Positions 41,020-63,643 of a DNA stretch of 64,000 nt are shown one piece after another. How positions within the stretch are numbered: the stretch's first letter is position 1; each line of letters begins with the position of its first letter. The notes beneath the pieces were generated by a model. It did no database searches. It saw only the letters and a list, made by a program, of their open reading frames with translations, and was not told the origin of the DNA. The position numbers were made by a program, and so were the translations under genes. Source of the DNA: Escherichia phage 236Ecol005PP; sequence record PP434423.1; one strand, written 5' to 3'.

Positions 41020-41811
41020 TCACATATTGTGTATAAGCACTTCAGTCTGAAATGATGCACCTTTCTTTTGCTTCCTATACATGGTTTCAAAATATTCAAT
41101 TTTGAAATTATTAGAAAGGGCCCAATCTTTTAAAATATAATTATTAATATCGTCTGATAGATTATTAGTGATAATAAATTTAGACTTCGATTGTTTAATT
41201 TTGTCTAATAATTCTAATTCATCCTTTTCTTCCCAGCCTGAATATTTAAATTTAGTAGAAAGATATGGCGGGTCAATGAATAAATTTTTGTTTTCAAAAT
41301 CCAAATCTCTGAATGATTTATTACTAAATGTAAATCTGTGTTGTCTATTTTTAAATTCAGAAAATTTATCCTGCTGAGACTTATTAAAAGAAGTTCTGGA
41401 ATACTTGGCTCTATTGGCGAAAGCCGCGTTATAATTCCCATTACTAGAAAATCGGATTAACGAACTGAATGAAAATAAATGTAGAACATAAAGATATAGT
41501 CCGTTTTTGGTTTTATCGTATTCTTTTGACAGATTATAAAAAGGTGCTGAATCTTTGTCATTCAAATTAAAGTCTTCAATAATTTGAACTATATCATTAA
41601 TTGAAGATGATTTCATCTTATTATACATATCTATAAGAGGAGTATTAATATCATTACATATAACATCTCTCTGACAATTCATAGAAAATCCAAGACCACC
41701 ACAAAAAGCATCCAAAACAGGCTTATCGTCAAAGCGGTTTGAAAATTGTCTAATAAATGGCATATACTTATGTTTTGCACCTGGATATGTTATGGCAGGT
41801 AGGTCTTTCAT
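41020..41811 (-). CDS. Dam-family N6-adenine DNA methyltransferase
   Basis: 263-aa ORF with N-terminal YPGAK, motif I DAFCGGLG and motif IV FIDPPY in the order typical of alpha-class Dam enzymes. Confidence 0.7.
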   Translation of the reverse strand: MKDLPAITYPGAKHKYMPFIRQFSNRFDDKPVLDAFCGGLGFSMNCQRDVICNDINTPLIDMYNKMKSSSINDIVQIIEDFNLNDKDSAPFYNLSKEYDKTKNGLYLYVLHLFSFSSLIRFSSNGNYNAAFANRAKYSRTSFNKSQQDKFSEFKNRQHRFTFSNKSFRDLDFENKNLFIDPPYLSTKFKYSGWEEKDELELLDKIKQSKSKFIITNNLSDDINNYILKDWALSNNFKIEYFETMYRKQKKGASFQTEVLIHNM

Positions 41812-41854: not shown

Positions 41855-42844
41855 TCATAATTTACAGGATGAACAATCTTCAGCTTTTGGAGTTTCTATT
41901 TCGTAATCATCAGTACCGGAACCATCACGAGTATTATGATAATAGAAGTTTTTAATGCCATAATACCATCCATATAGCATGTCATCAATCATTATTGACA
42001 TTGGAACCTTTCCTTTTGGAAAAATCTGCGGGTCATAATATGTATTCGCTGAAGCTGATTGACATACCCATTTAAGCATAATAGCTACCTGCGTAAGATA
42101 AGGTTTATTACCTTTCTTAGCTAATTTCCACGTATAATCATATAGGTCTATGTTATGTTCAATATTGGGCACGACTTGATTAAAGGAACCCTCTTTTGAT
42201 TCTTTAACAGAGACTGGTCCACGTGGAGGCTCGATACCATTAGTACTGTTAGAAACTTGGGAAGATGACTCACATGGCATAAGTGCTGATAATGTGCTAT
42301 TACGGATGCCAAAGAGCTTAAGGTCTTCCCGCAGCGCCGACCAGTCACAAACGTATTTTGGAGCTGCGATTTGGTCAATCTTTTTATTGTACCAGTCGAT
42401 AGGTAATTCGCCTCGAGACCAACGAGTGTCTGAATAATATTCGCAAGGTCCTTTTTCTTTGGCGAGCTTAATGGATGCTTTAATGAGTCCATACTGTAAT
42501 CTCTCAAATAGTTCATGTGTTAAATCGTTAGCATCTTCATAAGAAGCAAAGTTACTTGCCAGCCAAGCTGCATAGTTAGTAACACCTACACCAAGATTTC
42601 GACGCTTTTTAGCTTTTTCTGCTTCAGGAACTGGATATCCTTGGTAATCCAAAAGATTATCAAGAGCACGAACTTGGACTTCTGCTAATTCATTAATTTT
42701 ATCTTGGTCTTGCCAATCGAAGTTATCCAACACAAATGCGCTAAGGGTACAAAGCCCCACTTCTCCCTTGTTTTCAATAACTTCTATTGTAGTATACTCA
42801 TCATCTTCGTAAAATTCATCTACAAATTCATAATCAATATTCAT
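41855..42844 (-). CDS. nrdA: ribonucleotide reductase large subunit, C-terminal fragment
   Basis: 329-aa ORF; acidic 22-aa leader then GEVGLCTLSAF, ...LSALMPCESSSQVSNSTNGIEPPRG..., C-terminal CSSCKL typical of class Ia NrdA. Confidence 0.85.
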   Translation of the reverse strand: MNIDYEFVDEFYEDDEYTTIEVIENKGEVGLCTLSAFVLDNFDWQDQDKINELAEVQVRALDNLLDYQGYPVPEAEKAKKRRNLGVGVTNYAAWLASNFASYEDANDLTHELFERLQYGLIKASIKLAKEKGPCEYYSDTRWSRGELPIDWYNKKIDQIAAPKYVCDWSALREDLKLFGIRNSTLSALMPCESSSQVSNSTNGIEPPRGPVSVKESKEGSFNQVVPNIEHNIDLYDYTWKLAKKGNKPYLTQVAIMLKWVCQSASANTYYDPQIFPKGKVPMSIMIDDMLYGWYYGIKNFYYHNTRDGSGTDDYEIETPKAEDCSSCKL

Positions 42845-43544
42845 TTAATTCTTCTACCTTTTTTCTAGTAATTCCTAAAGCTTTAGATGCTCGATGTATT
42901 GATTGATATTCTATACCGTTTATTTTTACAGCAATTAAGTTATGGGGTTTTAATCCCTTTGGATGAGGTTTACTGACGAAAACTAAATTATCAAGCTCTG
43001 AAATCTTATCCAATTTCTTACACTTAAATCCTTTGTGATGCGCCCGTTTACCTTTACAAACGGCTGACATCGCAGATGGATTTAAATTATGCTCTTTACA
43101 AAATTCGTTAAGACCTCGATGAATTTCCTCATGACCATCTGGAAATGTAAACACCCAAGACGTTTGAAGTCGAGATTTAACTTCTGGAGACATAGGAATA
43201 CCTTTGTTCCAGGCCGGTTTGCCTTTATTATTTTCAGATACAGAAATAGCCAATTTTCTTCTAAGCCACCCATGTCGTTTATTGGTGTTCTTTCGTTCAA
43301 TATTATCTTCAGAATAAACACACATCATATTAGCGGCAAATATCAATTTATGATTATCTGGATATATCTTTACTAATAATTGATGAGCTATGTAATGCTC
43401 TTCTGGTGTCAAATCTACCAGGTTTTCCTTTGTATCAGAACCACCAATACACAGAGGTATAATATGATGTGATTCGGTATAGCAATCTAATTTTCTGTTC
43501 TTAGCTTTAGAAATAAGGTTATTGTAAATTTTAGAATAATCCAT
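42834..43544 (-). CDS. HNH homing endonuclease inserted within nrdA
   Basis: 236-aa ORF with HNH motif (HHIIPLCIGGSDTKENLVDLTPEEHYIAH) and C-terminal HTH-like segment; AGAGGA SD upstream; 3' end overlaps start of nrdA C-fragment. Confidence 0.8.
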   Translation of the reverse strand: MDYSKIYNNLISKAKNRKLDCYTESHHIIPLCIGGSDTKENLVDLTPEEHYIAHQLLVKIYPDNHKLIFAANMMCVYSEDNIERKNTNKRHGWLRRKLAISVSENNKGKPAWNKGIPMSPEVKSRLQTSWVFTFPDGHEEIHRGLNEFCKEHNLNPSAMSAVCKGKRAHHKGFKCKKLDKISELDNLVFVSKPHPKGLKPHNLIAVKINGIEYQSIHRASKALGITRKKVEELNEY

Positions 43545-43589
43545 AACTTTTCCTCTTGTTATGGATTATTTATTAACGGTCTGTGTACT
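42834..43589 (-). mobile_element. free-standing homing-endonuclease insertion splitting nrdA
   Basis: HNH ORF plus 45-nt leader lies exactly between the two nrdA pieces; too little non-ORF sequence for a group I intron core. Confidence 0.65.
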
Positions 43590-45023
43590 TTATTTGCTTT
43601 GAATTATACCGCCAGGATTAGCTTCATAAAACTTAGCTACATCCGACTTCTTAATTTTAATTAAACGGGTTTGTTGACTATTCACATCATTTGTTGGAAT
43701 AGCAATTTCACAACACAAGTTACTCTGACGAATAGGTGCTTTTTCACGAATAAATGGAGTATAGTTATTCGTATTATCAATGAACTGCACATAAATCCTT
43801 GCTGTTCCTGAGCGTTCAGTCATTAGCAATTCAAACAGTTCACGGGCTTTAATACGCTTTTTACGAATATTAGGGTCTTTTTCTGCGGCTTCATATAATT
43901 CACGGAAACGGTCTTGGTCTTTAAAATAAGAATAATAAAGCTCACCACCCATTTCATGTGGACTGAACAAAGTAATGTAGTCGTTCTTTCCAAAACGTTC
44001 CATCATCAAATCATTCAGCTGGACGCCATAATCCATATGACGGATACGGTTTTCTTCTACACCTTTGTTATTTTTCAAAACGAGAAGATTTTCAACTTCC
44101 AAATGCCAAATAGGATAATAAGCAGTAGCAGCGCCGCCACGAATTCCACCCTGTGAGCATGATTTAACAGCAGTCTGAAAATGTTTCCAAAAAGGAATAA
44201 CACCAGTATGGCGTACTTCACCTGTACCAATCTTAGAACCTTCGGCACGAATCATACCAACGTTAATACCAATTCCAGCGCGTTTGGAGATATATTCAAC
44301 AATTGAAGCGGAAACCTTATTGATAGACTTCAGCGAATCACCTGCCTCAATAACAACACATGAACTAAACTGTCGAGTCGGAGTACGACAGCCAGCCATA
44401 ATAGGAGTTGGCAATGAAATCTGTCGAGTAGATACTGCTTCATAAAAACGAATAACGTGTTTTAGTCTATCAACAGGTTCATCTTGATGCAATGCCATTC
44501 CAATAGTCATAAATGCAAACTGCGGAGTTTCATAAATTTGACCAGTGGTTTTATCTTTAACTAGATATTTTTCTTTTAATTGCATCGCCCCGGAATAAGT
44601 AAATTCCATATCCCGCTCATGCTTAATTTTTGATTCTAAAAATGTAATTTCTTCTGCTGAATATTTTGACAGCAGTTCAGGGTCATATTTACCTTCATTT
44701 ACACAGTAAGAAATATGGTCAATAAATGAACGTGGTTCATATTGTCCGTAAACATGCTTACGAAGAGCAAACATTAAACAGCGTGCAGCTACATATTGAT
44801 AATCAGGCTCTTCAACTGAAATAGAATTCGCAGCAGCCTTAATTACAATGGTTTGAATGTCATCAGTGGTCATTCCATCACGGAGATATGATTTAATATT
44901 TTCATATAATTCATAAGGATCTACAGATGTTCCTTCAGCTGCCCAAGATAAAACTTTAATAATTTTTTGCGGGTCAAAGCTCTGAGAAACACCACTACTT
45001 TTGATAACATTAATTAATTGCAT
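43590..45023 (-). CDS. nrdA: ribonucleotide reductase large subunit, N-terminal fragment
   Basis: 477-aa ORF with ATP-cone-like N-terminus and active-site motif SNLCCEIAIPT, then a 29-aa Lys-rich non-homologous tail and stop. Confidence 0.85.
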   Translation of the reverse strand: MQLINVIKSSGVSQSFDPQKIIKVLSWAAEGTSVDPYELYENIKSYLRDGMTTDDIQTIVIKAAANSISVEEPDYQYVAARCLMFALRKHVYGQYEPRSFIDHISYCVNEGKYDPELLSKYSAEEITFLESKIKHERDMEFTYSGAMQLKEKYLVKDKTTGQIYETPQFAFMTIGMALHQDEPVDRLKHVIRFYEAVSTRQISLPTPIMAGCRTPTRQFSSCVVIEAGDSLKSINKVSASIVEYISKRAGIGINVGMIRAEGSKIGTGEVRHTGVIPFWKHFQTAVKSCSQGGIRGGAATAYYPIWHLEVENLLVLKNNKGVEENRIRHMDYGVQLNDLMMERFGKNDYITLFSPHEMGGELYYSYFKDQDRFRELYEAAEKDPNIRKKRIKARELFELLMTERSGTARIYVQFIDNTNNYTPFIREKAPIRQSNLCCEIAIPTNDVNSQQTRLIKIKKSDVAKFYEANPGGIIQSK

Positions 45024-45580: not shown

Positions 45581-45892
45581 TTACACCGCCATTTTTCCTT
45601 TAATAGGAGGGTGTGATTCGTAACCTTTAAGAACGAAATCTTTAGGCCTGAGTTTAAGAGTGTATTCCAATTGTTCTTTAGTAGAAAGATAGCGGAATTT
45701 ATAAGGCAATCCGCCTATTACCAGTTCACAAAGCTCTTTAGGTTCACGACGTAAAATTTCTTTACATTGTTCTACGTGATTCATATAGATATGAGTATTA
45801 CCACCAGAAAATATCAAATCTCCTGGAATAAGATTACACATCTTAGCTACAATATGAACTAACGCAGCATATGATGCAATATTAAATGGAAG
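45581..45892 (-). CDS. td: thymidylate synthase, exon 2
   Basis: Encodes LPFNIASYAALV... (TS C-terminal domain); track ORF start ATG is the last three intron nucleotides. Confidence 0.85.
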   Translation of the reverse strand, partial: LPFNIASYAALVHIVAKMCNLIPGDLIFSGGNTHIYMNHVEQCKEILRREPKELCELVIGGLPYKFRYLSTKEQLEYTLKLRPKDFVLKGYESHPPIKGKMAV

Positions 45893-46146
45893 CATTATGT
45901 TCAGATAAGGTCGTTAATCTTATCCCGGAATTATATCCAGCTGCATGTCACCATACAGATCAGACTATATCTCCATCTTGATGAAGCAAGATGTCTATCG
46001 TTTCGAGTCACTTGACCCTACTCCCCAAAGGGATAGTCGTTAGGCATTTAGTTCAAAAGAACATTTAGCACGGGATTGTCTACTAGAGAGGTTCCCCGTT
46101 TAGATAGATTACAAGTATAAGTCACCTTATACTCAGGCCTCAATTA
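45893..46146 (-). other. group I self-splicing intron in td, ORF-less (about 254 nt)
   Basis: Exon 1 ends ...GTT TTC TTG GGT then TAATTGAGGCCTGAGTATAAGGTGACTTATACTTG...; intron ends ...CTGAACATAATG; both ends match the T4 td intron as recalled; no ORF inside. Confidence 0.8.
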
Positions 46147-46695
46147 ACCCAAGAAAACATCTACACTTCTTTGGTACCATTGTAAATCAAGATAACCATT
46201 ACGCACATTAAACTGATAGAACATATGACAGGGCGGTAATGCCATTTGATTGATTTCAGCTGGATTCCATGCTGAAACGATTTGACGTCGATCAGTTGGT
46301 AATTTTTTAATACGATCAATAGTTTCAACTAATTGATCCACACCACCGAAATCACGCCATTGTTTACCGTATATAGGACCAAGTTCACCACTATGATATC
46401 CTAGGTCTTTAGCCTGGTTTTCATAGTTATCGTCCCAAATAGTTTTACCTTGAATAAGACTACCATGAGTGCGAAGACGTAAATCATTAACATTGGTAGA
46501 ACCGGAAATAAACCATAGAAGCTCAGCAATGCAAGCTTTCCAAGCGAGCTTCTTAGTCGTTACTGCAGGAAAACCTTTAGTTAAATCCCAACGTAATTTA
46601 GTACCGAACAAAGCAATTGTTCCTGTGCCTGTTCGGTCATCGGTTTCATAGCCATTTTCAAAAATGTCTTTAATTAAATCTTGGTATTGTTTCAT
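46147..46695 (-). CDS. td: thymidylate synthase, exon 1
   Basis: 183 codons ending ...PPCHMFYQF...QRSVDVFLG (TS active-site Cys region). Confidence 0.85.
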
Positions 46696-52057: not shown

Positions 52058-55000
52058 ATGGCCGAGATTAAAAGAAAGTTCAGAGCAGAAGATGGTCTGG
52101 ACGCAGGTGGCGATAAAATAATCAACGTAGCTTTAGCTGATCGTACCGTAGGAACTGACGGTGTTAACGTTGATTACTTAATTCAAGAAAACACAGTTCA
52201 ACAATACGATCCAACTCGTGGATATTTAAAAGATTTTGTAATCATTTATGATAACCGCTTTTGGGCTGCTATAAATGATATTCCAAAACCGGCAGGAGCT
52301 TTTAATAGCGGACGCTGGAGAGCATTACGTACTGATGCTAACTGGATCACAGTTTCATCTGGTTCATATCAATTAAAATCCGGTGAAGCGATTTCGGTTA
52401 ACACTGCAGCCGGTAATGATATTACATTTACTTTACCATCTTCCCCAATTGACGGTGACACTATCGTTCTCCAAGATATTGGAGGAAAACCTGGAGTTAA
52501 TCAAGTTTTAATTGTAGCTCCAGTGCAAAGTATTGTAAACTTTAGAGGTGAACAGGTACGTTCAGTACTAATGACTCATCCAAAATCACAGATAGTTTTA
52601 ATTTTTAGTAATCGTCTGTGGCAAATGTATGTTGCTGATTATAGTAGAGAAGCTATAGTTGTAACACCAGCGAATACTTATCAAGCGCAATCCAACGATT
52701 TTATCGTGCGTAGATTTACTTCTGCTGCACCAATTAATGTTAAACTTCCAAGATTTGCTAATCATGGCGATATTATTAATTTCGTCGATTTAGATAAACT
52801 AAATCCGCTTTATCATACAATTGTTACTACATACGATGAAACGACTTCAATACAAGAAGTTGGAACTCATTCCATTGAAGGCCGTACAACGATTGACGGT
52901 TTCTTGATGTTTGATGATAATGAGAAATTGTGGAGATGGTTTGACGGGGATAGTAAAGCGCGTTTACGCATTATAACGACTAATTCTAATATTCGTCCAA
53001 ATGAAGAAGTTATGGTATTTGGTGCGAATAACGGAACAGCTCAGACAATTGAACTTCAGCTTCCTACTGATATCTCTGTTGGTGATACTGTTAAAATTTC
53101 CATGAATTACATGAGAAAAGGACAAACAGTTAAAATCAAAGCTGCCGGTGAAGATAAAATTGCTTCTTCAGTTCAATTGCTGCAATTCCCAAAACGTTCA
53201 GAATATCCGCCTGAAACTAAATGGGTAACTGTTCAAGAATTAGTTTTTAATGGTGAAACTAATTATGTTCCAGTTTTACAACTTGCTTATATAGAAGATT
53301 CTGATGGAAAATACTGGGTTGTACAGCAAAACGTTCCAACTGTAGAAAGAGTAGATTCTTTAAATGATTCTACTAGAGCAAGATTAGGCGTAATTGCTTT
53401 AGCTACACAAGCTCAAGCTAATGTTGATTTAGAAAATTCTCCACAAAAAGAATTAGCAATTACTCCAGAAACGTTAGCTAATCGTACTGCTACTGAAACT
53501 CGTAGAGGTATCGCAAGAATAGCAACTACTGCTCAAGTGAATCAGAACACCACATTCTCTTTTGCTGATGATCTTATCATTACTCCTAAAAAGCTGAATG
53601 AAAGAACTGCTACAGAAACTCGCAGAGGTGTTGCTGAAATTGCTACGCAGCAAGAAACTAATACAGGTACTGATGATACTACAATCATCACTCCTAAAAA
53701 GCTTCAAGCTCGTCAGGGTTCTGAATCATTATCTGGTATTGTAACTTTTGTATCTACTGCAGGTGCTACTCCAGCTTCTAGCCGTGAATTAAATGGTACG
53801 AATGTTTATAATAAAAACACTAATAATTTAGTTGTTTCACCTAAAGCTTTGGATCAGTATAAAGCTACTCCAACACAGCAAGGTGCAGTAATTTTAGCAG
53901 TTGAAAGTGAAGTAATTGCTGGACAAAGTCAGCAAGGATGGGCAAATGCGGTTGTAACACCAGAAACGTTACATAAAAAGACATCAACTGATGGAAGAAT
54001 TGGTTTAATTGAAATTGCTACGCAAAGCGAAGTTAATACAGGAACTGATTATACTCGTGCAGTCACTCCTAAAACTTTAAATGACCGTAGAGCAACTGAA
54101 AGTTTAAGTGGTATAGCTGAAATTGCTACACAAGTTGAATTCGACGCAGGCGTCGACGATACTCGTATCTCTACACCATTAAAAATTAAAACCAGATTTA
54201 ATAGTACTGATCGTACTTCTGTTGTTGCTCTATCTGGATTAGTTGAATCAGGAACTCTCTGGGACCATTATACCCTTAATATTCTTGAAGCAAATGAGAC
54301 ACAGCGTGGTACACTTCGTGTAGCTACACAAGTTGAAGCTGCTGCAGGAACATTAGATAATGTTTTAATAACTCCTAAAAAGCTTTTAGGTACTAAATCT
54401 ACCGAATCGCAAGAAGGTGTTATTAAAGTTGCGACTCAGTCTGAAACTGTAACTGGAACGTCAGCAAATACTGCTGTATCTCCAAAAAATTTAAAATGGA
54501 TTGCGCAGAGTGAACCTACTTGGGCAGCTACTACTGCGATAAGAGGCTTTGTTAAAACTTCATCTGGTTCAATTACATTCGTTGGTAATGACACAGTTGG
54601 TTCTACACAGAACTTAGAGCTATACGAGAAAAATAGCTATGCAGTATCACCATATGAATTAAACCGCGTATTAGCAAATTATTTGCCGTTAAAAGCAAAA
54701 GCCGCTGACACAAATTTATTGGATGGTCTAGATTCATCCCAGTTCATTCGTAGGGATATTGCACAGACGGTTAATGGTTCACTAACCTTAACCCAACAAA
54801 CGAATCTGAGTGCCCCTCTTGTATCATCTAGTACTGCTACGTTTGGTGGATCAGTTTCGGCAAATAGTACATTAACTATTTCTAATACTGGAACGGCAAC
54901 TCGTCTGATTTTTGAGAAAGGACCTCAGACTGGAACTAACCCAGTACAGACGATGACTATCAGAGTTTGGGGAAATCAGTTTGGTGGCGGTTCAGATACA

Positions 55001-55927
55001 ACACGTTCTACTGTATTTGAAGTTGGTGATGAAACTTCTAATCACTTTTATTCTCAACGTAATAAAGCTGGGAATATAACGTTTAGTATCAATGGTACTG
55101 TGATGCCGATAAACGTTAATGCTTCGGGTTCTTTGAACGCGGGCGGCGTTGCAACATTTGGTAGTTCAGTTACTGCTAATGGTGAATTCATCAGCAAGTC
55201 TGCAAATGCCTTTAGAGCTATTAATGGTAATTACGGATTCTTTATTCGCAATGATGGCACTAATACCTATTTTTTGCTCACTGCATCTGGTGATCAGACT
55301 GGCGGATTTAATGGATTACGTCCTTTAGCTATTAACAATCAGTCCGGTCAAGTAACGATTGGTGAAAGCTTAATCATTGCCAAAGGTGCTACTATAAATT
55401 CAGGTGGTTTGACTGTTAACTCGAGAATTCGTTCTCAAGGCACTAAAACATCTAATTTATATACTCGTGCACCAACATCTGATACTGTAGGATTCTGGTC
55501 AATCGATGTTAATGATTCAGCTACTTATAACCAGTTCCCAGGTTATTTTAAAATGGTTGAAAAAACTAATGAAGTGACTGGACTTCCATACTTAGAACGC
55601 GGAGAAGAGGTTAAATCTCCTGGTACATTGACTCAGTTTGGTAACACACTTGATTCGCTTTACCAAGATTGGATTACTTATCCAACGACTCCAGAAGCAC
55701 GTACCACTCGCTGGACACGCACATGGCAGAAAACCAAAAACTCCTGGTCAAGTTTTGTTCAGGTATTTGACGGAGGTAACCCTCCTCAACCATCTGATAT
55801 TGGTGCTTTACCATCTGATAATGCTACAATGGGGAATCTTACTATTCGTGATTTCTTACGAATTGGTAATGTTCGCATTATTCCTGACCCAGTGAATAAA
55901 ACGGTTAAATTTGAATGGGTTGAATAA
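52058..55927 (+). CDS. 34: long tail fiber proximal subunit
   Basis: 1289-aa ORF with repeated TPKKL.../ATQ-type fiber repeats; T4 gp34 length. Confidence 0.9.
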   Translation: MAEIKRKFRAEDGLDAGGDKIINVALADRTVGTDGVNVDYLIQENTVQQYDPTRGYLKDFVIIYDNRFWAAINDIPKPAGAFNSGRWRALRTDANWITVSSGSYQLKSGEAISVNTAAGNDITFTLPSSPIDGDTIVLQDIGGKPGVNQVLIVAPVQSIVNFRGEQVRSVLMTHPKSQIVLIFSNRLWQMYVADYSREAIVVTPANTYQAQSNDFIVRRFTSAAPINVKLPRFANHGDIINFVDLDKLNPLYHTIVTTYDETTSIQEVGTHSIEGRTTIDGFLMFDDNEKLWRWFDGDSKARLRIITTNSNIRPNEEVMVFGANNGTAQTIELQLPTDISVGDTVKISMNYMRKGQTVKIKAAGEDKIASSVQLLQFPKRSEYPPETKWVTVQELVFNGETNYVPVLQLAYIEDSDGKYWVVQQNVPTVERVDSLNDSTRARLGVIALATQAQANVDLENSPQKELAITPETLANRTATETRRGIARIATTAQVNQNTTFSFADDLIITPKKLNERTATETRRGVAEIATQQETNTGTDDTTIITPKKLQARQGSESLSGIVTFVSTAGATPASSRELNGTNVYNKNTNNLVVSPKALDQYKATPTQQGAVILAVESEVIAGQSQQGWANAVVTPETLHKKTSTDGRIGLIEIATQSEVNTGTDYTRAVTPKTLNDRRATESLSGIAEIATQVEFDAGVDDTRISTPLKIKTRFNSTDRTSVVALSGLVESGTLWDHYTLNILEANETQRGTLRVATQVEAAAGTLDNVLITPKKLLGTKSTESQEGVIKVATQSETVTGTSANTAVSPKNLKWIAQSEPTWAATTAIRGFVKTSSGSITFVGNDTVGSTQNLELYEKNSYAVSPYELNRVLANYLPLKAKAADTNLLDGLDSSQFIRRDIAQTVNGSLTLTQQTNLSAPLVSSSTATFGGSVSANSTLTISNTGTATRLIFEKGPQTGTNPVQTMTIRVWGNQFGGGSDTTRSTVFEVGDETSNHFYSQRNKAGNITFSINGTVMPINVNASGSLNAGGVATFGSSVTANGEFISKSANAFRAINGNYGFFIRNDGTNTYFLLTASGDQTGGFNGLRPLAINNQSGQVTIGESLIIAKGATINSGGLTVNSRIRSQGTKTSNLYTRAPTSDTVGFWSIDVNDSATYNQFPGYFKMVEKTNEVTGLPYLERGEEVKSPGTLTQFGNTLDSLYQDWITYPTTPEARTTRWTRTWQKTKNSWSSFVQVFDGGNPPQPSDIGALPSDNATMGNLTIRDFLRIGNVRIIPDPVNKTVKFEWVE

Positions 55928-55935
55928 GAGGTATT

Positions 55936-57051
55936 ATGGAAAAATTTATGGCAGAGTTTGGACAAGGATATGTCCAAACGCCATTTTTATCGGAAAGTAA
56001 TTCAGTAAGATACAAAATAAGTATAGCGGGTTCTTGCCCGCTTTCTACTGCAGGACCATACGTTAAATTTCAGGATAATCCTGTCGGAAATCAAACATTT
56101 AGCGCCGGTCTTCATTTAAGAGTTTTTGACCCTTCTACAGGAGCATTAGTTGATAGTAAGTCATATGCTTTTTCGACTTCAGATGATACTACATCAGCTG
56201 CTTTTGTTAGTTTCATGAATTCTTTGACGAATAATAGACTTGTTGCTATATTAACTAACGGAAAAGTTAATTTTCCTCCTGAAGTAGTATCTTGGATAAG
56301 AACCGCAGGAACGTCTGCTTTTCCATCTGATTCTATATTGTCAAGATTCGACGTATCATATGCTGCTTTTTACACTTCTTCTAAAAGAGCTATTGCATTA
56401 GAGCATGTTAAATTAAGTAATAGAAAAAGCACAGATGATTATCAAACTATTTTAGATGTTGTATTTGACAGTTTAGAAGACGTTGGAGCTACAGGATTTC
56501 CTAAAAGAACATACGAAAGCGTTGAGCAATTTATGTCGGCAGTTGGTGGAACTAATAACGAAATTGCGCGATTACCAACTTCAGCTGCTATAAGTAAACT
56601 CTCTGATTATAATTTAATTCCTGGCGATGTGCTTTATCTTAAAGCTCAATTATATGCTGATGCTGATTTACTTGCGCTTGGAACTACAAATATATCTATC
56701 CGTTTTTATAATGCATCTAACGGATATATTTCCTCGACACAAGCTGAGTTTACCGGACAAGCTGGGTCTTGGGAATTAAAGGAAGATTATGTAGTTGTTC
56801 CAGAAAATGCTGTGGGATTTACGATATATGCACAAAGAACTGCACAAGCCGGTCAAGGTGGTATGAGGAATTTAAGCTTTTCTGAAGTGTCAAGAAATGG
56901 AGGTATTTCGAAACCTGCTGAATTTGGCGTCAACGGCATTCGTGTTAATTATATCTGTGAATCTGCTTCACCTCCGGATATAATGGTACTTCCTACGCAA
57001 GCATCGTCTAAAACTGGTAAAGTGTTTGGGCAAGAATTTAGAGAAGTATAA
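55936..57051 (+). CDS. 35: long tail fiber hinge connector
   Basis: 371-aa ORF following gene 34. Confidence 0.8.
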   Translation: MEKFMAEFGQGYVQTPFLSESNSVRYKISIAGSCPLSTAGPYVKFQDNPVGNQTFSAGLHLRVFDPSTGALVDSKSYAFSTSDDTTSAAFVSFMNSLTNNRLVAILTNGKVNFPPEVVSWIRTAGTSAFPSDSILSRFDVSYAAFYTSSKRAIALEHVKLSNRKSTDDYQTILDVVFDSLEDVGATGFPKRTYESVEQFMSAVGGTNNEIARLPTSAAISKLSDYNLIPGDVLYLKAQLYADADLLALGTTNISIRFYNASNGYISSTQAEFTGQAGSWELKEDYVVVPENAVGFTIYAQRTAQAGQGGMRNLSFSEVSRNGGISKPAEFGVNGIRVNYICESASPPDIMVLPTQASSKTGKVFGQEFREV

Positions 57052-57054
57052 ATT

Positions 57055-57080
57055 GAGGGAGCCTTCGGGTTCCCTTTTTC
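57055..57080 (+). terminator. intrinsic terminator after gene 35
   Basis: GGGAGCC-TTCG-GGTTCCC hairpin plus T-run. Confidence 0.5.
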
Positions 57081-57082
57081 TT

Positions 57083-57090
57083 TATAAATA
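57083..57090 (+). promoter_or_regulatory. T4-type late promoter (TATAAATA) upstream of gene 36
   Basis: TATAAATA about 25 nt upstream of ATG. Confidence 0.5.
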
Positions 57091-57113
57091 CTATTAAAAT
57101 AAAGGGGCATACA

Positions 57114-57776
57114 ATGGCTGATTTAAAAGTAGGTTCAACAACTGGAGGCTCTGTCATTTGGCATCAAGGAAATTTTCCATTGAATCCAGCCGGTGACGAT
57201 GTACTCTATAAATCATTTAAAATATATTCAGAATATAATAAACCACAAGCTGCAGATAACGATTTCGTTTCTAAAGCTAATGGTGGTACTTACGCCGCGA
57301 CCGTTCGATTTAATGGAGGAGTACATGTTCCTACTATAGGTAGTAGTCAACAGTGTGGTGTTTATCCAGGTAACGGTGATGCAGCTACTTTTGCTATGGC
57401 AAATATTGACATCGTTTCGTGGAATGGTATTGGTTTTAAATCATCACAAGGTTCAGCAGACCGAACTGTTGTTGTTAACACTCGTACTGGTGATATCAGC
57501 ACTAAGGGTGGTATTTATGCAACTGGACCCGTCCGTTCTAACGTTACGGCTCCAGTTGCAGCAAATGACCTTACTAGAAAGGACTATGTTGATGGAGCAA
57601 TAAATACTGTTACGGCAAATGCGAACTCTAGAGTGTTACGATCTGGCGACACTATGACGGGTAACTTAACCGCACCAAACTTTTTCTCGCAGAATCCTGC
57701 ATCTCAACCTTCACACGTTCCACGATTTGACCAAATCGTAATTAAGGATTCTGTTCAAGATTTCGGCTATTATTAA
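57114..57776 (+). CDS. 36: long tail fiber distal connector
   Basis: 220-aa ORF, T4 gp36 size/position. Confidence 0.8.
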
Positions 57777-57784
57777 GAGGACTT

Positions 57785-60700
57785 ATGGCTACTTTAAAAC
57801 AAATACAATTTAAAAGAAGCAAAACCGCAGGTGCACGTCCTGCTGCTTCAGTATTAGCCGAAGGTGAATTGGCTATAAACTTAAAAGATAGAACAATTTT
57901 TACTAAAGACGATTCAGGAAATATCATTGATCTAGGTATTGCTAAAGGCGGTCAAATTGATGGAAATGTGACTATTGATGGAACTTTACGCGTCAATGGA
58001 CCAATAAACAACTTTGGAAATTTTTCTACAAGTGGTACTATCACGGCAAGTAATATTGTTTCTGCTACAGTATTCAGATCAACATCCGGTTCATTTTATA
58101 CAAGAGCAATAAATGATACAGCAAATGCCCATCTTTGGTTTGAAAATACAAATGGATCAGAGAGAGGTGTTTTATATTCAAAACCACAGTCTGAAAATGA
58201 AGGCGTAATTACAATGCGTGTTCGCCAAGGAACCGCAGCAGGGGCTCAAAATTCAGAATTTCATTTCATTTCTACTGATGGCGGTATCTTCCAGGCACGC
58301 AAATTAACTGCTTTAACTTCTATTAGTACACCAACTATTAGTGTTAATTTAATTAATCATGATTCTAAAGCCTTTGGACAATATGATTCACAATCTTTGG
58401 TCAACTATGTTTATCCTGGAACCGGTGAAACAAACGGTATAAACTATCTTCGTAAAGTTCGCGCTAAAGCTGCCGGAACCATGTGGCACGAAATCTGTAC
58501 AGCTCAGACCGGCCAAGCAGATGAAATGTCTTGGTGGACAGGTAATACTCCATCATCTAAACAATATGGCATTCGTAATGACGGACGAATGGCAGGCCGT
58601 AATAGCCTTGCATTAGGTACATTCACTACGGGTTTCCCGTCTAGTGATTATGGTAACGTCGGTGTAATGGGCGATAAGTATCTTGTTCTCGGTGACACTG
58701 TAACCGGTCTGAAATATATTAAGCAAGGTGTTTATGATTTAGTTGGTGGAGGTTATTCCGTTGCATCTATTACCCCGGATAGTTTCCGTAGTACTCGTAA
58801 AGCAATATTTGGACGCTCAGAAGACCAAGGTGCAACATGGATTATGCCTGGAACCAACGCTGCGGCTTTATCGGTTCAAACACAAGCTGATGAAAACACT
58901 GCTGGAGACGGCCAGACACATATTGGCTATAACTCAGGCGGTAAAATGAACCACTATTTCCGTGGTAAAGGCAAAACTAATATTAATACTCAAGAAGGCA
59001 TGGAAGTTAACCCGGGTATTCTTAAACTAGTAACCGGTGCTAACAGTATTAGCTTTAACGCTGCAACAGGTAATATTGATTCTACATTAGCTTTTCGTCT
59101 TAATAAAGGTATAATTATTGATGGACCTGATAATCAGGGATTCCAATTTAATGCTCCGACGGCTGTAGATGGTACTAGAAGCATATACTGGAATAGTGGC
59201 ACTCGCGCAGGTCAAAACAAAAACCCTGTTACAGTTAAAGTGTGGGGTAATTCATTTAACGCATCTGGTGATCGTAGTCGTGAAACCGTTTTTGAAGTAG
59301 CTGATGGGCAAGGTTACCATTTTTATTCTCAACGCGTAGCTCCTGCACCTGGTTCGACTGTCGGGCCTATTCAACTCCGAGTTAATGGTGGTTTATTAAC
59401 TTCAGGTAGTATTGTTACTTCTGGTTCTATTACAACCGAATCAAGCTTAGTTGCAAATAATGGATTGTCTGTAAATGGACAAGCTAAATTTGGCGGAACA
59501 GCAAACGCACTAAGAATTTGGAACGCTGAATATGGTGCTATTTTCCGTCGTTCGGAAAGTAACTTTTATATTATTCCAACCAATCAAAATGAAGGCGAAA
59601 GCGGAGACATTCACAGCTCTTTGAGACCTGTGAGAATAGGATTAAACGATGGCATGGTTGGGTTAGGAAGAGATTCTTTTATAGTAGATCAAAATAATGC
59701 TTTAACTACTATAAACAGTAACTCTCGCATTAATGCCAACTTTAGAATGCAATTAGGACAAAACGCTTATATAGATATTGAAGCTTCTGACGGCATTCGT
59801 CCAGCAGGGTGTGGTTCATTTGCATCCCAGAATGACGTAAACGTCAGAGCTCCAATTTATATGAATATAGAGCGTACTGCTACTTCTGAATATATTCCTA
59901 TTGTTAAACAGCGTTATGTGCAAGGTGATAGCACTTATTCTATTGGGACATTAATTAATCAAGGAGATTTCCGTGTTCATTATCACCAGGGAACTAGCAC
60001 CAATGGCGTAGATTTGAGTTGGGAATTCCGTCGCACAGGCGATTTCCGCGCGGCAGGTAAAATTATTGCCGGTGCTGCTACTCTTGGCACTGATGGTAAT
60101 ATCACGGGCGGTTCAGGAAACTTTGCTAACTTGAATACAACTTTAAACCGTAAAGTGAATTCTGGTTTTATTACTTATGGAGCAACTGCAGGTTGGTACA
60201 AGTTTGCAACAGTAACAATGCCTCAAGCTACATCAACCGTTTCAATTACAGTCACTGGCGGAAATGGATTTAATTCTGGATCATTTAATCAGTGCGCAAT
60301 TTCTGAAATTGTTCTTCGTACAGGAAACAATAATCCTAAAGGATTAAATGCTGTTCTATATAGAAGAGGACTAAATTCATTTAGAGATATTGCTTGGGTT
60401 AATACATCTGGTGATACATATGACATTTATGTTAATATGGGAACATATGCTAATCAGTTGATATTTAACTATAGTTCTGTTGATAACGCTACAGTTCAAA
60501 TTATTGGCGCATTCAGTTCAGCCCAAAATCCTGTTGATGCATTGCCAGGAACATATATTAAAGGTCAGGTAGCAGATGTATTAACTAACTTAGTTGATTC
60601 TGGAAAAACGAAACGTTTTGTTGCTGAATCTGAAATAGCTGTTAATAATCAAACTGGATTACGTATTACGAGTAATGGTGATAAATCTGGTTCAAATTCA

Positions 60701-61708
60701 GTATTATTCAGAAATGACGGTGGAAGTTTCTATATTTTACTGACCGACAAAAACTCTTCAGACGGCGATAATAAAGCAACTGAAGGTGATTGGAATGGAA
60801 AACGACCGTTTTCAATTGATATGACTGCTGGTACTGTTCGTCTTGGCGAAAATACTTCTTTTAGTAAAGATGTTACTATTGATGGAAACATTAATTCACG
60901 AGTTAAAGTTGTCGGACAGTGGAATGTTAGCTTTTCTGATATTTCAGATGTGACTCGTGACCGTTCTGCATTTTTAGTGAATACGGGTGCTATAACAGCT
61001 ACAAGCCAATCTTATTATCCATTGTTTTCTGGGTATAGTTATTTGAAAGATACTGGATATTGTCAATCATTTGAATTTGGATGGTTAGGTGTTTCTGGTA
61101 CTTGGCGTCAAGGCATTATTCGCATGCGTGGTGACAGTACATCAGGGCAACAGGCTCGTTGGACTTTTGATATGGACGGAACATTTTATGCTCCTATACT
61201 ATCATGCGGATCTGCGAGAGCATTCGGTGTCAATACATCAAATGGTCTCGGTGGAAACAGTATAACATTTGGTGATAGCGATACTGGTATTAAGCAAAAT
61301 GGCGATGGATTATTAGACATATATGCGAACAACGTACAAGTATTCCGTTTCCAAAATGGCGATTTGTACTCATATAAAAATATAAATGCTCCAAACGTTT
61401 ATATTCGTTCTGATATTCGTTTAAAATCCAACTTTAAACCTATCGAAAACGCACTTGATAAAGTTGAAAAACTTAACGGTGTCATTTACGATAAAGCTGA
61501 ATACATCGGTGGAGAGGCAATTGAAACTGAAGCGGGTATTGTGGCTCAAACTTTACAAGACGTTTTACCAGAAGCTGTCCGTGAAACAGAAGACAGTAAG
61601 GGTAATAAAATACTCACTGTTTCTTCTCAAGCCCAGATTGCTCTTCTGGTTGAAGCTGTGAAAACACTTTCTGCTCGTGTAAAAGAACTTGAATCTAAAC
61701 TTATGTAA
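57785..61708 (+). CDS. 37: long tail fiber distal subunit, T2-type with C-terminal chaperone-like domain
   Basis: 1307-aa ORF (longer than T4 gp37, 1026 aa as recalled); C-terminal about 110 aa (...[26 protein letters not shown]...LESKLM) resembles self-cleaving intramolecular chaperone domains. Confidence 0.85.
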
Positions 61709-61709
61709 A

Positions 61710-61738
61710 AGAGGGCTTCGGCCCTCTAAGGATTTTTA
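61710..61738 (+). terminator. hairpin/terminator between genes 37 and 38
   Basis: AGAGGGC-TTCG-GCCCTCT hairpin followed by T-rich run; gene 38 ATG follows immediately. Confidence 0.5.
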
Positions 61739-62521
61739 ATGGCAATTGTAGGTGTTCCTGGCTGGATTGGCGAATCTGCCGTGAATGAAACTGGACAACG
61801 TTGGATGGATGCTGCGATGAAAGCAGTTCGTGTTTCAGTTCCCGGTTGGATGAGCTCAATGGCTGGACAATCTAAAGAAATACATTACAGCATTGGTGCT
61901 AGCAATTCTTATAATAAAGACACACTAATAAATTGGATAAAAGCTCAAGGAAGTACTCCTGTTGTTATTACAATTACAGGCAATATCGTTTCTCACTCTA
62001 CCGGCGTTCCGTGTCTGGATTTCCCTAGTTCGTTGACCAACGCATATGTTACGTTGATCATTAACTCCGGTGTGACTGTCTATGGACGCGGTGGCAATGG
62101 TGGTAGTAACGCTGGTGGTGGCGCTGGTGGTAACGCAATTAATAATGGCATCGGTACACGCTTGCGTATTACGAATAATGGTGCAATCGCTGGAGGTGGT
62201 GGCGGTGGTGGCGGCGGTAACTACGGTAGACTATCATTTGGTGGTGGTGGTGGTCGCCCATTCGGTGCTGGCGGGTCTTCCAATCATATGAGTTCCGGTG
62301 CAACCGCTGGCTCCATTTCCGCTCCAGGTAAAGGATCTGCTGGTGAGGGGTCTCTTCATGTATATAAAGGCGGGAATGGCGGTGAAGTTGGCTCTGCTGG
62401 AGGAAGATGTAATATTCAAGGGAACGGTACAGAATATAACGGCGGCGCAGCAGGTAAAGCTGTTACTGGTAATGCTCCAACTTGGACTAAAGTTGGTACA
62501 ATATATGGTTCAAGAGTATAA
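61739..62521 (+). CDS. 38: T2-type tail fiber adhesin with glycine-rich motifs
   Basis: 260-aa ORF with multiple Gly runs (GRGGNGGSNAGGGAGGNA, GGGGGGGGGNYGRLSFGGGGGRPFGAGGS, GGNGGEVGSAGGR) typical of T2/K3-type gp38. Confidence 0.8.
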   Translation: MAIVGVPGWIGESAVNETGQRWMDAAMKAVRVSVPGWMSSMAGQSKEIHYSIGASNSYNKDTLINWIKAQGSTPVVITITGNIVSHSTGVPCLDFPSSLTNAYVTLIINSGVTVYGRGGNGGSNAGGGAGGNAINNGIGTRLRITNNGAIAGGGGGGGGGNYGRLSFGGGGGRPFGAGGSSNHMSSGATAGSISAPGKGSAGEGSLHVYKGGNGGEVGSAGGRCNIQGNGTEYNGGAAGKAVTGNAPTWTKVGTIYGSRV

Positions 62522-62552
62522 TTTTGAATAAATATCCTTAAAAGGAGGGTCT

Positions 62553-63209
62553 ATGGCAGCACCTAGAATATCATTTTCGCCCTCTGATATTCTGTTTGGT
62601 GTTCTAGATCGCTTGTTCAAAGATAACGCTACCGGGAATGTTCTTGCTTCCCGGGTAGCTGTCGTAATTCTTTTGTTTATAATGGCGATTGTTTGGTATA
62701 GGGGAGATAGTTTCTTTGAGTACTATAAGCAATCAAAGTATGAAACATACAGTGAAATTATTGAAAAGGAAAGAAATGCACGCTTTGAATCTGTCGCCCT
62801 GGAACAACTCCAGATAGTTCATATATCATCTGAGGCAGACTTTAGTGCGGTGTATTCTTTCCGCCCTAAAAACTTAAACTATTTTGTTGATATTATAGCA
62901 TATGAAGGAAGACTACCTTCAACAATAACCGAAAAATCACTTGGAGGATATCCTGTTGATAAAACTATGGATGAATATACAGTTCATTTAAATGGACGTC
63001 ATTATTATTCCAACTCAAAATTTGCTTTTTTACCGACTAAAAAGCCTACTCCCGAAATAAATTACATGTACAGTTGTCCATATTTTAATTTGGATAACAT
63101 CTATGCTGGAACAATAACCATGTACTGGTATAGAAATGATCATATAAGTAATGACCGCCTTGAATCAATATGTTCTCAGGCGGCCAGAATATTAGGAAGG
63201 GCTAAATAA
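62553..63209 (+). CDS. t: holin
   Basis: 218-aa ORF with single N-proximal TMD (VAVVILLFIMAIVWY) and large C-terminal domain; T4 T size/position. Confidence 0.85.
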   Translation: MAAPRISFSPSDILFGVLDRLFKDNATGNVLASRVAVVILLFIMAIVWYRGDSFFEYYKQSKYETYSEIIEKERNARFESVALEQLQIVHISSEADFSAVYSFRPKNLNYFVDIIAYEGRLPSTITEKSLGGYPVDKTMDEYTVHLNGRHYYSNSKFAFLPTKKPTPEINYMYSCPYFNLDNIYAGTITMYWYRNDHISNDRLESICSQAARILGRAK

Positions 63210-63482
63210 TTATTTGTTTGTATACATCTCTAGATATCGATATACACCCTCAAAACCCTCGTTGAATTCGTCGATGAGGGTTTTCTTATTTTCTTGGGTT
63301 AATTCAGAAACAATTTTACGGAATGAATTCTGATTCAACTTTCTACCTTCATGCGTTACTCCAATCTCATTCAGAAATGCGATAAAATTAACACGATTCT
63401 CAACAATATCTTCTCTGGAAAATTTAATCAAAATAGATGCAACAGTAATAATTTCACGAACTGTATCAATGTTTTTATTCAT
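63210..63482 (-). CDS. asiA: anti-sigma-70 factor
   Basis: 90-aa ORF MNKNIDTVREIITVASILIKFSRED... matches T4 AsiA as recalled. Confidence 0.85.
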   Translation of the reverse strand: MNKNIDTVREIITVASILIKFSREDIVENRVNFIAFLNEIGVTHEGRKLNQNSFRKIVSELTQENKKTLIDEFNEGFEGVYRYLEMYTNK

Positions 63483-63643
63483 TAACTACACCACTCAATT
63501 AGTTGACTTTATTATAATATCATCAGACGCTTGATTTGTAAACTGGTCTGTGTTATTTTCTTCAAAAATTTTTTCTACGAATTCCTTGAACGACTCACGT
63601 TCCTGAGCTACATTATGCTCGATTACCTTTTCAAGATTATGAC

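Follow-up and report, generated by a model that had tools for sequence, protein, structure and literature searches.

Proteolytic removal of the C-terminus has been reported for gp37, the distal long-tail-fiber subunit, of phages T2 and T6 (PMC3157838). The same study states that the T2-type arrangement of genes 37 and 38 predominates, and gives a rule whereby each gp38 attachment domain goes together with its matching subtype of gp37 C-terminus (PMC3157838). In phage S16, the last 113 residues of gp37 form an intramolecular chaperone (IMC). Its autocleavage at S^SDRRIKK uncovers the surface to which gp38 binds, and the N-terminal domain of gp38 docks there by means of a Trp "prong" (PMC7917993). 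The cleavage sites have been aligned as DLNVS^SDRRIKK in S16 and DVYIR^SDGRLKI in the fPS phages (PMC7917993). The T2 receptor is FadL, and phage PaulHMueller depends on OmpA (PMC8594841). Here, we analyzed gene 37 of Escherichia phage 236Ecol005PP in a window of 64,000 nucleotides (PP434423.1). Jointly with the cleavage, gp38 capping, and receptor reading set out below, we hold it very probable that this is the standard distal long-tail-fiber gene of a T2-like Escherichia coli phage (Tequatrovirus), with a T2-type fiber tip.

Gene 37 is an ATG-to-stop ORF on the plus strand (57785..61708), as are all features below, and is preceded by a good Shine-Dalgarno match (AAGAGGA) 5 nt upstream of its start. 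It encodes a precursor of 1307 aa and 140.3 kDa, the length given in the first-pass annotation, and its translation contains the C-terminal peptide cited there (ending LESKLM). Its best full-length match is the Shigella phage Shfl2 "long tail fiber protein distal subunit". The locus follows the canonical T-even order of gp34, gp35, gp36, gp37, gp38, and holin t. Upstream lie the proximal long-tail-fiber subunit gp34 (52058..55927; Pfam Gp34_trimer and Gp34_2nd; 95.4% aa identity to T4 gp34), the hinge connector gp35 (55936..57051; 97.8% aa identity to T4 gp35; annotated as proximal hinge connector in relatives), and the short distal-half-fiber subunit gp36 (57114..57776; Pfam Phage_T4_gp36, E=2.6e-36; 84.1% identity to T4). 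At 1289, 371, and 220 aa, against 1289, 372, and 221 aa in T4, these three do have the T4-like lengths first ascribed to them. To the right, the variable cassette is bounded by the conserved gene for holin t (62553..63209; 218 aa; Pfam Phage_holin_T, E=1.6e-116), with 96 to 100% nt identity to every compared phage, T4 included. A sigma-70 promoter scan of positions 57000-63500, whose scope does not extend to T4 late promoters, returned 21 sites, no excess over the 19.6 +/- 4.8 in shuffled sequences, and is uninformative. That so long an ORF, or the domain at its C-terminus, arose by chance or as an assembly artifact, such as a fusion of two genes, is scarcely credible: we found no point in its support, and full-length collinear homologs of 1276 to 1341 aa with the same C-terminus occur in hundreds of phage genomes.

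The locus had been described as a T2-type gp37 within an otherwise T4-like structural module. The T2-type assignment stands, with the last ~157 aa resembling T2 and an adhesin-type gp38 encoded next door, but the implied oddity does not. The flanks resemble T2-type phages and T4 to an equal degree, and the T2-type arrangement, recognized by its adhesin-type gp38, was found in 763 phage records versus 297 with a T4-type gp38. That makes it the majority form, and it is T4, not phage 236Ecol005PP, that is the exception. In the multiple alignment, T4 gp37 shows nothing but gaps opposite aa 1101-1300, and the gene directly downstream of gene 37 encodes a gp38 of the adhesin family (PF05268), not the 183-aa T4 gp38. 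Several database records label homologous gp38 proteins "distal long tail fiber assembly catalyst", as would fit a fiber working like that of T4, in which gp37 bears the receptor-binding tip and gp38 acts solely as a chaperone during assembly, without becoming part of the virion. Such a mode of action is nevertheless extremely improbable, given that the PF05268 adhesin encoded here is full length and a homolog of S16 gp38, which is bound to the virion (6f45), and that T4 gp37 (1026 aa, 61.7% identical over the residues paired in a pairwise alignment) places no residues against the last ~200 aa, from aa 1101, in the multiple alignment, ending instead in an unrelated His-rich tip.

The resemblance of the gp37 C-terminus to intramolecular chaperone domains, initially proposed from its sequence, is far beyond chance. 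Peptidase_S74 (PF13884, "chaperone of endosialidase") matched aa 1209-1266 over profile positions 1-58/58 with 56.4 bits (E=3.7e-15), the Pfam gathering cut-off being 22 bits. The IMC domain as a whole spans aa 1209-1307 of 1307 (61409..61705; 99 aa, 10.8 kDa), the extreme C-terminus of the subunit, and is 100% identical in amino acid sequence to that of T2 gp37 (X04442; 294/300 nt); alignment to T2, likewise proposed at first pass, gave 98 to 100% identity over the last ~157 aa. The domain opens with a predicted autocleavage motif, S1209-D-I-R-L-K1214 (61409..61426), in the context NVYIR^S1209-DIRL-K1214, that is, a Ser followed by a Lys five residues on (Ser-x4-Lys; S-D-x-R-x-K). Both residues are invariant in 7/7 aligned T2-type gp37s, and the motif aligns with those of S16 and the fPS phages. 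When the last 142 aa were searched against PDB with phmmer (E<=10), the meaningful matches were 6f45_A (E=3e-09) and the auto-processing domain of MYRF (7dc3, E=1.1e-3). In a separate PDB search, 6f45_A, comprising the S16 gp37 tip and IMC, aligned with aa 1153-1305 at E=1.2e-10. In these alignments, SDIRLK lies opposite SDRRIKK of 6f45_A, and in 7dc3 the query Ser faces the first residue of ADLRAK and the Lys faces a Lys. The PDB entries for endosialidase and T5 fiber IMCs were not matched directly by this single-sequence search of the last 142 aa. Many influenza HA2 matches (E 0.02-0.6) were set aside as coiled-coil or low-information. The DNA encoding the chaperone domain is 96 to 99% identical in nucleotide sequence to most T2-type phages, a level no higher than that of the neighboring holin gene, and hence indicates nothing special.

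Because the domain is identical to that of T2 and homologous to that of S16, autocleavage of gp37 is predicted at the R1208^S1209 bond. Alternatively, the S74-like domain might stay in the mature fiber as a degenerate, noncleaving remnant or structural cap, with gp38 binding elsewhere. Cleavage is read from sequence, and the single-sequence AlphaFold2 monomer of aa 1151-1307 (pLDDT 48.6, pTM 0.36) was uninformative, being too poor for comparison with the family's characteristic fold, an intertwined trimer that ends in a helical bundle; here the solved 6f45_A serves as a substitute through sequence homology only. We nonetheless regard retention as highly improbable, in view of the intact motif with its invariant Ser and Lys, the match over the entire S74 profile, and the complete identity of the domain to its counterpart in T2, a phage in which the gp37 C-terminus is reportedly cleaved.

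Immediately upstream of the predicted cut, the mature distal tip of gp37 (aa 1153-1208; 61241..61408), ending in NVYIR, aligns with the S16 gp37 tip (6f45 chain A) and is 92 to 100% identical in Shfl2, T2, LH2, KRT47, and PaulHMueller. By analogy with S16 (PMC7917993), gp38 is predicted to dock on this tip after release of the chaperone domain. A terminator-like UUCG-tetraloop hairpin, AGAGGGC-TTCG-GCCCTCT (61710..61727), lies in the gap that separates the stop of gene 37 from the start of gene 38, with an MFE of -13.4 kcal/mol but a z of only -1.6. The intergenic sequence, hairpin included, is identical to that of T2, whose record annotates it as "stem-loop structure; pot. transcription terminator", with a possible RBS of gene 38 in overlap. 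Gene 38 (61739..62521) encodes a T2-type tail-fiber adhesin of 260 aa and 24% glycine, matching GP38 (PF05268) over profile positions 1-218/218 (E=1.5e-69) and S16 gp38 (6f45_D) at E=3.7e-51. Its N-terminal attachment domain (aa 1-42; 61739..61864; Gp38_N, PF21721, E=7.1e-18) carries Trp9, Trp22, and Trp37 and is nearly invariant among six aligned gp38s. A near-identical gp37 tip accompanies this attachment domain in five of the six phages that have it; the tip of FJ1 diverges (60%, aa 1151-1200). In the C-terminal domain, poly-Gly blocks are aligned across relatives, with variable segments in between. The closest gp38 is that of PaulHMueller (Bas45), at 93.5% aa identity, and the 17 substitutions between them all fall past the attachment domain, mostly in the glycine-rich, variable C-terminal half. 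Single changes in this half are known to shift specificity. The receptor of gp38 is probably OmpA, an indirect assignment by similarity to the PaulHMueller adhesin. Work on T2, K3, and S16 (PMC3157838; PMC7917993) suggests that gp38 would be carried on the virion and set the receptor.

The gene was also first read as a recombinational mosaic, and the nucleotide comparison bears this out, as successive stretches of the gene 37 locus are 98 to 100% identical to differing Tequatrovirus phages (Shfl2/KRT47, LH2, and FJ1). Across the whole of gene 37, no single record exceeds the 89.3% nt identity of Shfl2. The N-terminal ~50 aa of gp37 (57785..57934), the end that joins gp36, are conserved at 96 to 100% aa identity in Shfl2, T2, LH2, KRT47, FJ1, PaulHMueller, and T4, and nt 57736-57885 at 98 to 100% nt identity in the same phages; this segment is likely a recombination anchor. 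Farther along the shaft, aa 493-617 (59261..59635) form a Gp34_trimer-like domain (PF21446, E=1.4e-10), and PDB gp34 fragments 4uxe, 5nxf, and 5nxh match aa 465-657 at E~1e-15. A distal-shaft patch (59986..60735) is common almost only to FJ1 and AV115, with 98 to 100% nt identity to FJ1 versus 51 to 90% for the other five phages compared; by tblastn with aa 791-1110, FJ1 and AV115 were 94.1% identical and the next best record 81.6%. Mosaicism extends to the center of gp36, where nt 57286-57585 are 57 to 65% identical to Shfl2 and 91 to 98% to FJ1. Gene 38 shows 87 to 95% identity to PaulHMueller in its variable part. The proximal shaft is like that of Shfl2/KRT47 and the distal shaft (aa ~800-1050) like that of FJ1/AV115; with them are combined the universal T2 tip and chaperone domain and an OmpA-type adhesin like that of PaulHMueller. 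The patches come together from among T2-type alleles, as opposed to a T2 cassette inserted into a T4 genome, and mosaicism is the known norm at the gene 37/38 locus. The gp37/gp38 allele itself appears to be a new combination of known patches, absent from the phage collection searched. It is unlikely that, within this new combination, the rare FJ1/AV115-type distal-shaft patch adds a secondary contact (e.g., to LPS or a glycan) and so codetermines host range with gp38, and any such role for the shaft is speculative.

Drawing on T2 and S16 for cleavage, gp38 capping, and receptor, we propose the following sequence of events. The 1307-aa gp37 precursor would trimerize, with the 99-aa IMC domain nucleating folding from the C-terminus. 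Once the trimer had folded, Ser1209, helped by Lys1214, would cut the R1208-S1209 bond, and departure of the 10.8-kDa chaperone fragment would leave a mature gp37 of 1208 aa and 129.5 kDa. The bared NVYIR tip would then be capped by the separately encoded gp38, docking via its Trp-bearing N-terminal domain, so that the hypervariable loops of gp38, framed by glycine-rich motifs, would face an outer-membrane protein, probably OmpA.

An S74-bearing gp37 together with a gp38 adhesin is already known and is the commonest arrangement in this phage group. The main value of the analysis is for annotation, suggesting that the phage uses T2-type host recognition, with a cleaved gp37 and a gp38 adhesin cap that probably binds OmpA. 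If host recognition does proceed via gp38, host-range engineering should aim at the gp38 loops, not the gp37 tip. The locus offers nothing new on fiber chaperone domains or on the mosaicism of tail fibers; both have been well documented there.

Compared with described systems, the locus resembles T4 in gene position, in the N-terminal ~50 aa of gp37, in gp37 aa 601-650 (100% identical), and in the flanks, with gp34, gp35, and holin 95 to 98% identical. Unlike the gp37 of phage 236Ecol005PP, however, T4 gp37 (1026 aa) has its own receptor-binding tip and no S74 domain, and T4 gp38 (183 aa) is an unrelated chaperone. The IMCs of endosialidase (K1F) and of T5 L-shaped fibers likewise belong to PF13884, lie at the C-terminus of a trimeric fiber or spike, and carry the Ser/Lys motif (PMC7917993, PMC5537660), but are related via the family profile only, and their upstream triple-beta-helix or fiber domains are unrelated. 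Among individual phages, Shfl2 provides the best full-length relative of gp37 (1311 aa; 89.3% nt, 91.7% aa), Escherichia phage vB_EcoM_FJ1 matches the patch at 59986-60735 at 98 to 100% nt identity, and PaulHMueller has the closest gp38. The S16 gp37-gp38 tip (PDB 6f45) shares a homologous gp37 tip and IMC, a homologous gp38, and the S-D-x-R-x-K motif, and the same logic would apply, whereby the IMC departs and gp38 then docks. In contrast, the tip and IMC sequences are distant, with several alignment gaps; the S16 IMC has 113 aa versus 99 in 236Ecol005PP, and the residues before the cut are DLNVS versus NVYIR. T2 gp37 (X04442, 1341 aa) and gp38 agree with the present pair in gene order, in the N-terminal 50 aa, and in the last ~157 aa (98 to 100% identical). 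Overall aa identity to T2 gp37 is nevertheless 67.9%, the gp37 of phage 236Ecol005PP is 34 aa shorter, and the shaft differs in many patches (14 to 50% identity in aa 51-200 and 901-1100). Finally, T2 uses FadL, whereas the gp38 of phage 236Ecol005PP is closest to an OmpA-specific one.

Gene 37, encoding the distal long-tail-fibre subunit precursor, is an ATG-to-stop ORF of 1307 aa at exactly 57785..61708 (+), with a ribosome-binding site (AAGAGGA) immediately 5' of it. This ORF, at the position claimed for it, and the C-terminal peptide quoted in the first-pass annotation were both found in the window. The surrounding genes follow the canonical T-even late-gene order, with gp34 (52058..55927, 1289 aa), gp35 (55936..57051, 371 aa) and gp36 (57114..57776, 220 aa) upstream, gp38 (61739..62521, 260 aa) and holin t (62553..63209, 218 aa) downstream, all on the + strand, and asiA and arn on the opposite strand beyond the holin.

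The C terminus of gp37 carries an intramolecular chaperone domain (IMC, residues 1209-1307). Residues 1209-1266 matched all 58 of the 58 positions of the Pfam Peptidase_S74 profile ("chaperone of endosialidase", PF13884) at 56.4 bits (E=3.7e-15; curated cut-off, 22 bits). The IMC begins at S1209-D-I-R-L-K1214, directly preceded by NVYIR; S1209 and K1214 form the Ser-x4-Lys motif of the family, and SDIRLK lines up with both the gp37 cleavage site of Salmonella phage S16 (DLNVS^SDRRIKK) and the site predicted for Yersinia fPS phages (DVYIR^SDGRLKI) (PMC7917993). Searches of the PDB with phmmer recovered chain A of 6f45, a crystal structure of the S16 gp37 tip with its chaperone domain, using either full gp37 (E=1.2e-10) or its last 142 aa (E=3e-09). 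They also recovered human MYRF (7dc3, E=1.1e-3), whose auto-processing domain is homologous; there the first residue of the ADLRAK motif lies opposite the gp37 Ser, and Lys faces Lys. The last ~110 residues, for which an absence of detectable homology had been named as the outcome that would overturn the proposed chaperone-like C terminus, are clearly homologous to fibre chaperone domains, and hence the proposal stands. Because a single-sequence AlphaFold model of residues 1151-1307 was unusable (pLDDT 48.6), assignment of the IMC fold rests on sequence homology to 6f45.

In S16, the IMC is autocleaved once trimerised, and its departure exposes the docking surface for gp38 (PMC7917993). For T2/T6 gp37, proteolytic loss of the C terminus is reported (PMC3157838). 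Cutting at the predicted site, R1208^S1209, would shorten the precursor from 140.3 kDa to a mature subunit of 129.5 kDa and release a fragment of 10.8 kDa, and we infer that gp37 is cleaved and capped by gp38 in this phage. Further upstream in the fibre, shaft residues 493-617 (59261-59635, +) matched Pfam Gp34_trimer (E=1.4e-10), and residues 465-657 matched the gp34 trimerisation domain (PDB 4uxe/5nxf, E~1e-15). This part of the shaft is homologous to a proximal-fibre domain, and the module is therefore common to both half-fibres. Residues 58-126 of the hinge protein gp35 matched Pfam ILEI ('interleukin-like EMT inducer', PF15711; 34.7 bits, cut-off 27, E=2.6e-08), an unexpected family name for such a protein.

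The downstream ORF encodes a T2-type adhesin, matching Pfam GP38 over the full profile (E=1.5e-69), Gp38_N (E=7.1e-18) and S16 gp38 (6f45 chain D, E=3.7e-51). Its 24% glycine content accounts for a local G+C spike to 0.52. The N-terminal attachment domain, which contains Trp9, Trp22 and Trp37, was almost invariant in six phages, five of which had a near-identical gp37 tip, that of FJ1 being more divergent; this pattern fits the lock-and-key gp37/gp38 pairing of Trojet et al. (PMC3157838). The nearest relative was gp38 of PaulHMueller/Bas45 (93.5% aa identity), a phage that depends on OmpA (PMC8594841), making OmpA the best guess for the receptor. All 17 differences between the two adhesins lie past the attachment domain, mostly in the glycine-rich, variable C-terminal half, so we infer OmpA rather than assign it. 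Krischvirus adhesins (RB49, JSE, Phi1, ECD7) were 85-87% identical to gp38, closer than most Tequatrovirus gp38s (~82%), which indicates exchange of the adhesin across genera, another case of its known cross-genus spread.

The first-pass annotation had described a T2-type gp37 in an otherwise T4-like module. The T2-type assignment was upheld; the T4-like background is no oddity, as gp34, gp35 and the holin are 95-98% identical to T4 and T2-type phages are equally close. Of the records in the phage collection, 763 carried the gp38 adhesin and 297 the T4-type gp38 chaperone, in agreement with the T2/T6 form being the predominant one (PMC3157838). By these comparisons, 236Ecol005PP is typical of T2-type Tequatrovirus phages, and the exception is T4. 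The overall interpretation of gp37 was supported.

Elsewhere in the window, td (thymidylate synthase, -) comprises two exons (46144..46695 and 45581..45895) separated by a group I intron of ~250 nt (45896-46143, -; Rfam RF00028 at 45941-46156, 72.7 bits, E=1.6e-16). Unlike the T4 td intron, which carries a homing-endonuclease ORF, this one appears to be without one. nrdA (41855-45023, -) is in two pieces, encoding an N-terminal 477 aa (43590..45023) and a C-terminal 329 aa (41855..42844), between which lies an I-HmuI/NUMOD-like homing-endonuclease ORF (236 aa, 42834..43544); no intron was detected there with Rfam. FL33, FL34, fPS-2 and fPS-90 share this 'gene in pieces' layout at ~97.8% nt identity. 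Between nrdB and the C-terminal part of nrdA is an ORF for a D12-class N6-adenine DNA methyltransferase (PF02086, 263 aa, 41020-41811, -), apparently a rare accessory methylase that has inserted at this position. It was present at at least 99% identity in only four phage records (T4_ev240, EP02SG, ECO07P2 and vB_Eco_NR1) and at ~75-80% in a few; the remaining matches fell below 60%, with the next-best among the matches listed at 33-40%.

The proposed recombinational mosaic was borne out as a patchwork among T2-type alleles, long-described behaviour for the tail-fibre locus (PMC3157838). A 17.8-kb flank shared 93-96% nt identity with many Tequatrovirus genomes. The gp37 protein was aligned with its counterparts in T2 (X04442), Shfl2, LH2, KRT47, FJ1, PaulHMueller and T4. 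Over the full length of gene 37, the best match, Shfl2, reached just 89.3% nt identity, owing to the patchwork revealed by sliding-window nt comparison. Best matches were Shfl2 (95-100%) and KRT47 (91-100%) at 57586-58335, Shfl2 (96-100%) and LH2 (98-99%) at 59236-59685, FJ1 only (98-100%) at 59986-60735, Shfl2 and LH2 (95-99%; KRT47 81-99%) at 61186-61785, and PaulHMueller only (87-95%) at 61936-62535, the variable part of gene 38. Across the FJ1-like patch (residues 791-1110, tblastn), FJ1 and AV115 were 94.1% identical and the next best record 81.6%. The centre of gp36 (57286-57585, +) was also mosaic (Shfl2 57-65% nt versus FJ1 91-98%), both gene 36 ends being 97-100% identical to the compared T2-type phages and 92-99% to T4. 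The variable parts are framed by three blocks conserved in every compared phage that possesses them, and these are the obvious candidates for crossover anchors. The first consists of the end of gp36 and the N-terminal 50 aa of gp37, the second comprises the chaperone-domain end with the following hairpin and gp38 N terminus, and the third is the holin gene. T4 has the first and third blocks and lacks the second.

The hairpin (61710-61727, +) lies after the stop codon of gene 37 and before the start codon of gene 38. It has a UUCG tetraloop on a 7-bp G+C-rich stem (-13.4 kcal/mol; z versus shuffles just -1.6), and T2 (X04442) has an identical one, annotated there as a potential terminator that overlaps a putative RBS for gene 38. 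The 30-nt spacer between the genes is identical to that of T2, and the last 300 nt of gene 37 differ from T2 at six positions. The last ~157 aa of gp37 are 98-100% identical to T2, and the 99-aa chaperone domain 100%. The feature is already known, even to a chaperone domain that T2 shares residue for residue; what is new here is only the way in which the patches are combined, and that is of little interest.
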